Of a DNA stretch of 64,000 nt, positions 59,206-63,147 are shown piece by piece (within the stretch, counting starts at the first letter, position 1; each line of letters starts with the position of its first letter). The stretch is from assembly GCA_904063045.1 (NCBI GenBank), contig CAJFCJ010000067.1:13278-77277 (forward strand), in the 5' to 3' direction. The notes under the pieces were generated by a model. It searched no databases and was not told the DNA's origin. It worked only from the letters and a program-made list of their open reading frames with translations. The DNA is from Dimorphilus gyrociliatus. Lineage: Eukaryota; Animalia; Annelida. Both the position numbers and the translations under genes were made by a program.

Positions 59206-60933
59206 ATGAGTAACTGGTTCTACTTGGAAAAGCAGGTTGTTCATGTGACAAGTAAAATTGAGAACATTTGTTATTCTTTTTATCATGCTTAAGTCACAAA
59301 CACTTCTGTTGAGGCTATTGGTGAACATTGTTTAATTATAGCTATTCTCCATCTGATACTGTGCATTCCAACTCATTTGTTAACACTGTGTCATTGAGGA
59401 TCAAATTTGCTAGTAATGCATCATTCTGCTTCTTTGAACAAATTGATTGCAGAGAAGACTTGACAGCTGTTGGGAAACTTTTTTTAATTCTTAAATTTGA
59501 ATCAATACATGTAGTAGGTAGATGTTTGGGCAGCTCTCTCATTTCCATGGGAATTTGTGGTATGGGTTTTTCTTTCTTAGTTTAGTTTTGTTCCTTCTTC
59601 ATCTGCTTTTTAGCATTCTCATGTGTAGAGTAAAATAATTCCTTCATAGGTAATCTTAATTCTCTGGCTGGTGGTCCTTTATACCATATGCCCAATGTTG
59701 GTAATACCTTCTTTTTGATTCTTTTCTCACTGTATACATATTTTGAAATCGTGACAGATTGTCTTGTTGCCCTTGTCCAATTGACTGCTTGCAGCATTTC
59801 TTGGATATAATAGTTATCCAGCTCCCAGTAAGATGGACTAATGGGTTGTTGTAGATGATATATCACAACTTCCTTGAGTGTGCCTTTTATTTCTCATTAG
59901 TTTATACTTTGTGTTTGTTTCTCTGTACATTGGTTAAGACTTGGTAAGGGGTTGTTTCGCTTGTATAGTATAATTTGTTCTTTAACTTTATTGGGATAGT
60001 TTAATAGTCGTTTTTCTTCATTTTTTGCCAATCTCTGATATTGTAGCAAATTGTATAGGTGTTCCTTGCTTGTTTCCTGTATTAAACTCTGTTCCTCCAG
60101 TGGTACTAGTACTTTTGTTCCAGGACCACCAATTCCATCAATAAACTTATCTTGATAAGGGATGTCCAGAATAGAATACCCTGGACAAGAATAGTGACCA
60201 GCAAATTTGATACAACTAATTCTGTTGCTAATTTTTATCCATGGTGATTGTTGCCCAAGTGTGTAATTATTCTTGAGGTTCCTAAAGACAATAATTGCCT
60301 CTTCTGTTTCACAATAGGACTGCCCTGGTAAACAATCTTCCAGGTAGTCCAGATTAGTTGTAATTTTCATATTAGGAGGTTGCCAATATGCTTTGCCAAA
60401 CTGGATAATTGTGGTGTATTCCAGCACCTTGGTCGTTGTTGGCCATGTGTAGGCAGCAGGAAACTGATCTTGGTGGATCCAAGTGTTTCTTTTCACCATT
60501 AAAGGTTTTCCTTGAAAAGATCGTTTGTCTTTTATCATCTGTCTGCATTGATCATGAGTTACTTTGATAACTGAGTTAACAATCCTCCTCTTCTTTGCTC
60601 CAAAGAAATAGTAAGTGTAAAAATTAGTTCTTAGATACACTTGACATTTTACTGCTCTTGTTTCAATTTCTTCCAAGTTCAATTCATAGATATCAGCTGT
60701 AATTGTCTTGGTTCTTGTGATTCTATATTACAAGTTGGCTCATCTGCTAGATCAAATGCCTGGCTTGGTAGTTGGTTAGAACAAAAGTATAATGGTGGTT
60801 TAAATGTTAAGGTAATGTTTGCACTTGTAACATGGGCACCTTGGTAGGATGGTTTTGGGACTGTTATTGAGTGGATGCAGCCACAGATCACCATTACAGT
60901 CATCACTAGTGGAAGCCACAACATCTGTTTCAT
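59206..60933 (-). CDS. env: Env: class III viral fusion glycoprotein-like, frameshifted
   Basis: Signal-like MKQMLWLPLVMTVMVICGCIHS; FC...C; AVKCQVYLRTNFYTYYFFGAK...VTHDQCRQMI; YTWPTT; DCLPGQSYCET. A 1-nt frameshift lies near 60700, with further frameshifts downstream. Confidence 0.75.
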
Positions 60934-63147
60934 GTTAGCTCTTCCTGTGTTGGCTATAGTTGAATGGTTGAAAATTTTGTGTTGTTGTTCCACTCTGATA
61001 GTTATTCCATCTTCTAACTCTATATATTGTGGTTCCACTTCTTGTTGGGAATCTAATTGTTCAGAGATGATTTTAGTCTCATCTAAAAATATGACTGACT
61101 CATTGTCTGTGTCACTTGTATTTTCTTTCTCATCTTGGGATGAATCTACCACTATGAGGGACTCATTATCCGAATGGGTTATGTCAATAATTTCACCTTC
61201 AATAATTATTGACTCATTATCCGAATGGGTTATATCAATAATTTCGCTTTCAATAATTATTGACTCATCGTCTGAACTAGGTATTTCATCTTCTCTATCA
61301 GAGATAATGTTTGCCTCTGAATCTGTATTTTGATCCAGTTCATTATTTGTTTCTGTGTCATCACTTTCAGATGAGCTTGAAGGTTCATTGAGACTGTAAT
61401 TACTGTCTGTTTTGAAAGTATTGCTTGTGTCATAACCAGTATCAGAATTAGTAACTTCCATCTCTGAGTCATCACTATCTGAACTTTCTGATGAAGAGTC
61501 ATGCTGTCCCATCATGGCTATAGTGACTTTGTTTAGTTGAGGTTGCCTTATTCTTTCAGCCAGGTTCCCTTTCCTTCTATCAAATTTGAGAGAACACTGT
61601 TTAGCTTCAAAATTGAGGTTTGCTCCCACAGTTTGTAGGAAATCACAACCAAGTATTATTGCTATGTCTAGATTTTCCATAACTATAAATTCTTGTTCCA
61701 TACTTTCTCCAGCAAATTGGATATTCAGCTTTACGCTTCCTTTTTGCTTTAAAGCTTTCCCATCAGCTGAAGTTATAATTGGTAAGCCAATTGTTTCTTT
61801 ATCCATAATTGTAACATCCATTAACTTGATTTCTTTTTCAGTAATAAAGGATCTCAATGCTCCTGTGTCACACAGGGCAATGACTTCTTGGCCTTTTTGA
61901 TTCTTCAAACGGAATTGGAAGTCATTTCTTCCTTCTACCTGAGAAAGATATTGGAGGTGTGTTATTTCCTTCTCCACAAGGTGAAAGATTGTTGTTGCTT
62001 CTTTCCCTGTTTCCAACTTATTAGATTCATTGGCTAGTCTTAATCTGCTACCATGTACCAACTTGCATGTATTATCATCCATTTGTATTTCATATATCCA
62101 CTTTTGATGATTGACTTTTGTTATTCGGTATGGGCCTAACCATTTTAAAGAAGGGATTTTTGTTATTGCAATTCTTGCAGCATCATTTCTTAAGAATACT
62201 TCATCATCAACCTCAAAATATTTTGGAAGATTGAGATTTCTATTCTTTCTTTCCCTATATTGTTCTTTTGCCATGATGGATTTACAGAAGGCTGTAGCTC
62301 TTAACTGTACTAATTGCTGCTGGTGATTGAATACAAATAGTACATTTGTTTCAGGAGAGGTAGTATGCATTGTTACATCAATCAGTGTTCTTGTGCTGGT
62401 GCCAAAAAGAAGTTCCTGGGGTGGTAGTCTTGTACTTCCTACAGGTGATTGATTCAAAAATGCTTGAATCAAGGGTAGGTTTGCAACCCAGTTATGCTGA
62501 TTTTCTTCCACCACTAATTTATTGATTTCCTTCCTCACTTCTCTATTTCTTCGTTCAACTAGTCCATTGCTCTGGCTTCTATAAGCTGTTGTTTGGATTT
62601 TCTCAATACCTAATACCTTCATAAACTCTTTAAAAGCTTTACCAACAAAGTTTCTTCCTTGATCTGTCAACATTTGTTTTGGAATTCCAAAAATGGGAAA
62701 AAATCTGTTGAAAAGAAGGTTTGCAATTTCTTTACTGGTTTGCTGTTTGAGTGCATATAAAACTGTGTATCTACTGAAATGATCCACTATCACAAGTATG
62801 AATCTGTATGACTTAACCATGGGTAAGGGTCCCATTATATCCATGGCTACCAACTCCATTGGTGATGCAGGGTGAAAGGTTTCTACCAAAGGGTATACTC
62901 TACTCCTACCATTCATTTGTTCACACAAAGTGCAATCCTTTATTGAATTCTCAATCATAATCTTTAATTTTGGGTGCCAAAAGGTCTTTGTAATTATTTG
63001 TAATGTCATTCTGGGTCCATGGTGATTGTGAATTTTATTTTTATGGAATTTAGGGAGCAGAGTTAGCATCAAATGGTCAGGTAAAACCAGAATGTTTCTT
63101 TCTTCAAGGATAATCCAGATCATTTCCTTGTGAACAAACATCTCCAT
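60679..63147 (-). CDS. Gypsy ORF: integrase - aspartic protease - acidic SIM-like array - env N-terminus
   Basis: HNHH...CTLC finger, MDIMGP / TDQG / GLVER (DDE), WLGPYRI (GPY/F), then LCDTGA...IILGCDFL protease, acidic repeats, and a signal peptide, all in frame. Confidence 0.93.
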   Translation of the reverse strand: MEMFVHKEMIWIILEERNILVLPDHLMLTLLPKFHKNKIHNHHGPRMTLQIITKTFWHPKLKIMIENSIKDCTLCEQMNGRSRVYPLVETFHPASPMELVAMDIMGPLPMVKSYRFILVIVDHFSRYTVLYALKQQTSKEIANLLFNRFFPIFGIPKQMLTDQGRNFVGKAFKEFMKVLGIEKIQTTAYRSQSNGLVERRNREVRKEINKLVVEENQHNWVANLPLIQAFLNQSPVGSTRLPPQELLFGTSTRTLIDVTMHTTSPETNVLFVFNHQQQLVQLRATAFCKSIMAKEQYRERKNRNLNLPKYFEVDDEVFLRNDAARIAITKIPSLKWLGPYRITKVNHQKWIYEIQMDDNTCKLVHGSRLRLANESNKLETGKEATTIFHLVEKEITHLQYLSQVEGRNDFQFRLKNQKGQEVIALCDTGALRSFITEKEIKLMDVTIMDKETIGLPIITSADGKALKQKGSVKLNIQFAGESMEQEFIVMENLDIAIILGCDFLQTVGANLNFEAKQCSLKFDRRKGNLAERIRQPQLNKVTIAMMGQHDSSSESSDSDDSEMEVTNSDTGYDTSNTFKTDSNYSLNEPSSSSESDDTETNNELDQNTDSEANIISDREDEIPSSDDESIIIESEIIDITHSDNESIIIEGEIIDITHSDNESLIVVDSSQDEKENTSDTDNESVIFLDETKIISEQLDSQQEVEPQYIELEDGITIRVEQQHKIFNHSTIANTGRANMKQMLWLPLVMTVMVICGCIHSITVPKPSYQGAHVTSANITLTFKPPLYFCSNQLPSQAFDLADEPTCNIESQEPRQLQLISMN

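Follow-up and report, generated by a model that had tools for sequence, protein, structure and literature searches.

In a stretch of 64,000 nucleotides from the annelid Dimorphilus gyrociliatus (contig CAJFCJ010000067.1, positions 13,278 to 77,277 of the forward strand; in the following called the window) a Ty3/gypsy-like retrotransposon with long terminal repeats (LTRs) carries a retropepsin behind its integrase. The order RNase H (RH), integrase (IN), protease (PR), acidic array and signal segment of a likely envelope protein (Env) is real and family-wide. Single contigs bridge the junctions in several sequencing runs; therefore, this order is not a misassembly. On balance, we favour the view that the protease module, here termed PR2, was captured by recombination from a sister family of elements found in the same window. 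It probably is a second protease, and not the element's own one in a new place.

Reading frame and domain order of the element

The minus strand holds an open reading frame (ORF) of 843 amino acids from stop to stop (60679-63210), which is free of stops from the integrase through the signal-like segment. Within these 843 codons an integrase is followed by a retropepsin with a DTG motif, by acidic repeats and by a methionine with a signal-like segment, in agreement with a preliminary description of this DNA. On the minus strand the landmarks start at 62061 (LVHGSRLRLA), 61869 (DTG), 61032 (PQYIELEDGITI) and 60933 (Met760). The element and the sister family consist of the following parts:

63715-63999, minus strand: end of the reverse transcriptase (RT) connection, followed by the beginning of RNase H, in a frame still open where the window ends (Pfam RT_RNaseH_2, E 1e-14)
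63150-63677, minus strand: C-terminal part of RNase H and RH-IN linker, a separate frame in the window copy (Pfam RT_RNaseH, E 3e-11)
62032-63081, minus strand: integrase with HHCC zinc finger, DDE core and GPY/F-type C-terminal domain ending in ...HGSRLRLA (Pfam H2C2 and rve; Integrase_p58_C weak)
61576-62031, minus strand: second-position retropepsin module, pre-PR linker and protease (Pfam RVP_2/RVP)
60976-61533, minus strand: acidic Ser/Thr-rich array with short hydrophobic cores, ending in PQYIELEDGITI (composition; Tandem Repeats Finder, TRF)
60859-60933, minus strand: Met760 with the signal peptide predicted for the likely Env, continuing the frame of the module (sequence, hydropathy)
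59206-60858, minus strand: likely class III (gB/rhabdovirus-G-like) envelope ectodomain in several broken frames, running into an N gap (ORF pieces)
57889-58523, minus strand: 635-nt LTR (TG...CA), likely the 3' LTR across the N gap 58524-59205 (repeat search, orientation)
9555-13802, minus strand: sister family with a 936-nt LTR and canonical Gag-PR-acidic-RT-RH, closest relative of the module (Pfam, alignment)

Pfam places Integrase_H2C2 at residues 44-100 and rve at 116-211 of the 843-residue ORF, followed by a weak Integrase_p58_C at residues ~359-391 (E 0.0084, below cut-off). Above the cut-off are RVP_2 at 446-542 (30.0 bits; cut-off 20.3) and RVP at 440-532. Two hallmarks of retropepsins, LCDTGA at 446-451 (D[ST]G motif) and IILGCD (hydrophobic-hydrophobic-G-x-D), lie in the module, and by these motifs together with RVP_2 the protease is predicted to be a retropepsin (peptidase clan AA, A2-like). 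Ty3 Gag-Pol and foamy virus IN were among the best PDB matches for the integrase. With its RT-RH-IN order, gypsy-type RNase H and HHCC/DDE integrase, the element appears to belong to Ty3/gypsy (Metaviridae). The order of Gmr1-like elements and Ty1/copia, with IN upstream of RT, is not seen here; IN comes after RH. This RH is indeed present upstream of IN as first described, but in two broken frames (63150-63677 and 63715-63999).

The acidic array consists of 28% D/E and 25% S/T and includes a 51-nt tandem repeat at 61160-61268 (TRF). Its repeat number varies, as seen from a 102-nt skip in a diverged contig. The preliminary description had regarded it as an array of SUMO-interacting motifs (SIMs). 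An acidic array with hydrophobic cores is present; a clear enrichment of such motifs was not borne out, since four SIM cores with acidic flanks compare with a shuffle mean of 2.0 and 187 of 2000 shuffles reach as many. The SIM label would thus denote a resemblance only.

Behind the array, a hydrophobic segment covers residues 766-784 after Met760 (hydropathy), and the frame of the window copy breaks ~85 codons past this methionine. The gene that follows is likely a class III envelope gene. The ESM Atlas gave a lead, and a lead only, of 0.85 to the Monjiviricetes_fusion cluster. The N-terminal Env piece compared with the env of the database protein P0087 reached a z of 3.8; this was one of four pairings in pairwise shuffle tests, and the other three were not significant. 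A two-sequence env profile had no match among 523 frames of the window. The transmembrane segment expected of such an Env would fall into the N gap.

Six sequencing runs (X1 to X6) were considered for independent support. Five of them contain 75-85% of the words of 59300-64000, the share of X6 being 0.00. Contigs were compared with the element in X1, X2, X4 and X5, which come from two studies (X5 from the second), and in X3 with the sister element only. Single contigs cross both junctions in X1 (59519-64000), X2 (59277-63638) and X4 (59591-62802), and a contig of X5 (60993-64000) crosses the IN-PR junction. The integrase-protease junction is hence bridged in four of four runs, and in three of the four the bridge takes in the entire module as far as the signal, so that the arrangement first noticed in the window copy extends well beyond it. 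These bridging contigs differ from the window by 4-17 other letters; long contigs with 4-7 such differences occur in very small runs, too. The array-signal junction is also crossed by a more distant contig of X5 (~85% alike, 43 letters out of 286 differing); therefore, this junction is older than the ~15% split. The contigs of X2 total just 0.13 million letters, yet the element's stretch was assembled in one piece, which suggests a repeated and homogeneous family, read depth being no measure of copies. Against the window copy, every one of the four runs shows single-base gaps (18 with the X1 contig), densest beside the N gap (23 in ~400 bases in X4). The broken frames of the window copy we take to be probable consensus errors of long reads, which have this known pattern.

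Origin of the protease module

Residues 373-745 of the 843-residue ORF align to residues 336-761 of the ORF in the sister element at 9555-13802 (47% identity, E 1e-100), as had been proposed. At the DNA level the protease is only 75.9% identical to that copy over 357 nt, which rules out a collapsed duplicate of its module and agrees with the divergence already pointed out in the preliminary description. The closest named protein, P0012 (DgyrCDS14407 of Dimorphilus gyrociliatus), is itself a member of the sister family (72% over 448 positions). In this family the primer binding site (PBS) and the probable start codon of Gag overlap (A-TGGCG, Met-Ala-Gln-Ser; 13729-13733) right after the 936-nt LTR. 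The sister element is also present as a tandem duplicate of 4.4 kb (99.6%; 8480-12900 and 14669-19088), both copies being truncated at the integrase start. An ORF for a Reprolysin (M12B) metalloprotease (40501-41619, plus strand) has a further 936-nt LTR (41487-42422) on one side and, on the other, the RT of a deleted third copy (37585-40400).

Towards the sister family, PR2 shows 61-68% amino acid identity and the acidic array 53%. For the Pol domains, amino acid identity is 0.70-0.71 in RH and 0.34-0.59 in pieces of IN, compared with 0.68 in PR; the RH DNA is 67.5% identical. How unusual this is becomes visible from 1128 reference pairs of 48 canonical polyproteins: in the 18 pairs with an RH identity of 0.60-0.75, PR identity averages 0.28 and never exceeds 0.40. 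Synonymous divergence (pS) from the sister family is 0.51-0.56 and unsaturated in the module, versus 0.69-0.81 and saturated in RT, RH and IN. At conserved residues the identical codon is used in 115 of 181 cases in the module versus 68 of 144 in RT, RH and IN (p 0.002); for PR alone the count is 53 of 88 (p 0.04). In a tree of protease domains, PR2 and the sister PR are sisters with 96% support in the SH-like approximate likelihood ratio test (SH-aLRT), on branches of 0.19 for PR2 versus 0.25 for the canonical sister PR, and the two compare with an omega (dN/dS) of 0.25; this was a quick tree of 72 out of 99 domains after thinning, with 117 columns and mostly unresolved.

The module thus resembles the sister family much more than the remaining Pol does; had the element's own protease simply moved, this would not be expected. 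Of the two possibilities first offered, a moved protease or an added second module, the closeness to the sister family favours the addition, and a relocation of the element's own protease is unlikely. Furthermore, ~12 nt at the IN-PR junction resemble both the integrase end of a relative and the pre-PR linker of the sister family. This three-way similarity may be compatible with template switching, weakly so in view of its AT-rich sequence.

Several points weigh against a captured second protease that is read through into Env. The reference library was clustered at 50% identity, so that close pairs are under-sampled in the comparison of RH with PR. The codon test is not significant when PR only is compared with RT and RH only (p 0.09), and within the 2-fold class alone module and remaining Pol do not differ. 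The dN/dS of PR2 against the sister PR, an omega of 0.25, mixes the periods before and after the capture. No upstream contig piece matches either protease at at least 80%. The 14 codons ahead of Met760 would be free of stops by chance in ~1 of 4 cases, at an off-frame stop rate of 0.09-0.11. Of the Env originally placed after the module, the signal-like segment stands, but the Env pieces yield no significant match in Pfam, PDB or profile searches. Finally, 60 nt are missing in frame from the main contig of X5, and of this run only, which removes 20 residues just past the DTG motif. On the plus strand this stretch (61782-61841) reads GTAAGC...TTTCTTTTTCAG and has strong intron ends; short introns are typical of Dimorphilus gyrociliatus, with a median of 66 bp according to the passages available from its genome paper (PMC7854359). 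The skip may result from antisense splicing, like that of a precursor of PIWI-interacting RNAs, if X5 is RNA, or from an in-frame deletion if X5 is DNA. In the latter case PR2 would be dispensable.

Identity, genomic setting and known parallels

The link of the 635-nt LTR to the element rests on the scaffold join, and the 5' LTR falls outside the window. Solo copies of this LTR occur at 21436-22070 (100%; with ATAT at either end), 34903-35537 (97.5%) and 36062-36678 (92.9%). The LTR interrupts the integrase C-terminus of another element, the empty site being kept at ~45126 in an inverted duplicate. This duplicate (5.3 kb, 99.9%; 45126-50428 and 52586-57888) has a C1q-domain ORF in each copy, and its second copy ends exactly at the LTR.

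Probably, the element is a Dingle-type env-bearing Ty3/gypsy of Dimorphilus gyrociliatus. Dingle (Dinophilidae Gypsy-like elements) is described as the commonest transposable element of this species, a Ty3/gypsy LTR element in which the integrase is followed downstream by an env-like gene said to be similar to herpesvirus gB; unlike the element here, no protease behind the integrase is mentioned in the text passages available (PMC7854359). A second element to compare is Annelida_Polychaeta_Dgyr_errantivirus_1, for which the accessible parts of an errantivirus catalogue (PMC13524379) give LTRs of 631/636 nt, an HSV/gB-type env (HSV standing for herpes simplex virus), 7 copies and an internal part of ~8.05 kb. 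Its LTR length agrees with the 635 nt found here. In contrast, it is labelled GAG-POL with a chromodomain, a domain not seen in our element, and the ENV stop that its data imply, ~1.76 kb upstream of the 3' LTR, is a poor fit. The PBS of this errantivirus (reverse complement TCGACTGCGCCA) occurs in the sister family of the window, at 13729. We regard the chances that both elements are identical as about even. Troyka was set aside as a candidate for its CG ends, as given in the part of PMC12440569 at hand.

Fusion of Pol and Env in one frame is already known. The same catalogue includes the ORF labels GAG-POL-ENV and POL-ENV (PMC13524379, supplement 4, as far as accessible), P0132 joins IN, an acidic region, a signal and a class III Env in one ORF, and P0153 (see below) is a further case. 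Of the new architecture with an in-frame Pol-Env that had been considered before, the protease behind the integrase is real, but the fusion itself is not new. A literature search found no report of a protease downstream of the integrase, or of a second protease, in retrotransposons or errantiviruses; the search covered few subscription papers, and figures and GitHub data of PMC13524379 and Extended Data Fig. 3d of PMC7854359 may already show it. Apparently, a PR between IN and Env is an undescribed architecture within a known kind of element.

The parallels were drawn from the 150 best integrase matches. A protease follows the integrase in 28 of them, with RT or IN coming next in 25, and P0016 is a join of multiple elements. 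We set aside 26 of the 28 as presumably tandem or nested elements joined by gene models, which left P0087 and P0134, both with a protease after the integrase and no further RT or IN. P0153, a cluster mate of P0087 in ENA (3129 amino acids, one ORF), reads Gag-PR1(DSG)-RT-RH-IN-chromodomain-signal-Env-like-TM-PR2(DTG)-TM, where TM is a transmembrane segment, and carries two intact-looking retropepsins, the second one beyond the envelope. P0153 and P0087 share with our element the single Ty3/gypsy ORF, the Pol-Env fusion and a second, DTG-type retropepsin downstream of the integrase. However, their second protease sits after the TM of Env, is 25% identical to their own PR1 and does not group with the PR2 described here. 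This position, low identity and tree placement point to an independent origin. P0134 (ENA, one ORF, 5'-incomplete) reads RT-RH-IN-PR followed by ankyrin repeats and two hydrophobic segments; by eye, it holds a second, degenerate protease-like repeat. The protease tree requires at least two origins for second proteases. An extra retropepsin behind the integrase thus appears to recur across elements.

Other departures from the usual gypsy domain order are Gmr1-like Ty3/gypsy elements and Ty1/copia with PR-IN-RT-RH. There the integrase has moved and the protease stays first, whereas here RT-RH-IN is intact and the protease comes after it. The Tor elements of Oikopleura are likewise env-bearing and gypsy-type and reside in a compact genome, and their pol has an internal promoter from which env can be expressed; in contrast to our element no second protease is mentioned, the word "protease" occurring 0 times in the main text, the part of the paper at hand (PMC4402516). 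Word-based protein searches retrieved no relative for the IN-PR junction (0 of 522 candidates), the RH piece (0 of 636) or the Env piece (0 of 623), which is weak evidence. No case was confirmed when viral and metagenome contigs were scanned for loci with pieces of P0001, with P0134 and with P0087.

The remainder of the window contains 773-nt satellite-like repeats (1-6123 and 50335-51923), a Penelope-like element with RT and GIY-YIG (22881-25521, minus strand), pieces of a MULE/FLYWCH transposase (30574-33421) and an EGF ORF (42540-43004).

Possible role of the second protease

We consider it likely that a first protease is retained between Gag and RT, in the region beyond 64000. Contigs extend past this position by 2667 nt in X4 and by 2783 nt in X2. 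That no upstream piece matches at 80% or more fits a diverged first protease, but equally well none at all: a native PR as diverged as RH, with its DNA identity of 67.5%, would escape the 80% test. In X3, the depth over the protease and the array end is fully accounted for by the sister contig and the downstream module. If the element is Dgyr_errantivirus_1 and the gap size is right, its 5' part comprises ~850 codons versus 1060 in the sister family. The shortfall of ~210 codons equals the length of the acidic array alone and would, under this identity, leave room for Gag-PR-RT.

For the origin and use of PR2 the following course seems most likely. Template switching during reverse transcription would have joined the sister's block from pre-PR linker to spacer to the integrase end. 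With both module ends in frame, translation of Pol would continue through PR2 and the acidic spacer into the signal of Env. The internal signal might then anchor the polyprotein at the endoplasmic reticulum, where signal peptidase would free the Env ectodomain, and the membrane-tethered PR2 could dimerise and cut integrase and spacer loose from the Env stub; the acidic array would provide a flexible link. In addition, a subgenomic RNA read from Met760 might yield Env by itself, in the manner of the Tor elements. In a more general form, which we put forward only tentatively, Pol-Env-fused Ty3/gypsy elements would repeatedly and independently have acquired another retropepsin on the envelope side, which lies ahead of Env here, beyond Env in P0153 and behind the integrase in P0134 and which, held at the membrane, releases the integrase or matures the envelope; in the element described here it may even be the only protease.

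This last point leads to a replacement, in which the sister's PR-acidic module was captured behind the integrase and the protease between Gag and RT was lost or never kept. The result would be Gag-RT-RH-IN-PR-Env, processed in trans or backwards by the sole protease. No upstream piece matched either known PR at 80%, the catalytic and flap-side motifs of PR2 are intact and conserved, and P0134 has no PR before RT in its (5'-incomplete) ORF. The 5' length, the gap size being uncertain, also fits Gag and spacer without PR, although, if the element is Dgyr_errantivirus_1, it best fits a PR without array. However, a native PR diverged like RT and RH would not match at 80%, P0153 retains both proteases, and the dominant X5 contig without 20 residues of PR2 is awkward for a sole protease if X5 is DNA. 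We regard a replacement as unlikely.

More improbable still is a mere passenger, i.e. a module captured in frame by chance and tolerated since Env starts at its own Met760, PR2 having no role and owing its conservation to the donor family. This would account for the in-frame loss of 60 nt from PR2 in X5 and for the changed repeat number of the array (102-nt skip in the diverged contig), and internal env promoters do exist in Tor elements (PMC4402516, as far as accessible). Moreover, 8 of the 13 single-letter differences listed for the ORF are non-synonymous, six of these in the array and its 3' end. On the other side, within the PR core just one difference is listed, a synonymous one at residue 446, both ends of the module are in frame and its 350 codons remain stop-free. 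The array-signal junction is shared with a contig ~15% diverged, and extra downstream proteases recur in unrelated elements. The X5 skip, with perfect intron ends on the opposite strand, is maybe antisense splicing and not a deletion. An assembly artefact or one-off nested rearrangement, to which the adjoining N gap and the many single-base gaps against all run contigs (18 in X1) might point, is practically negligible, as single contigs in four of four runs from two studies cross junctions with few other letters and X2, whose contigs add up to no more than 0.13 million letters, yields the stretch as a single piece.

The classification of LTR elements rests on domain order, and the assumption is that a retroelement needs one protease, close to the start of Pol. 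A protease behind the integrase is a domain for which catalogues built with RT and IN as baits do not look. The capture favoured here would clearly exemplify how sibling retroelements exchange modules within a compact animal genome; should the first protease be missing, it would constitute a new domain order for Ty3/gypsy. If our interpretation is true, a young family of elements has held on to a captured second protease next to its envelope, with independent parallels elsewhere, and would reveal how processing and stoichiometry are dealt with when Pol and Env are fused.

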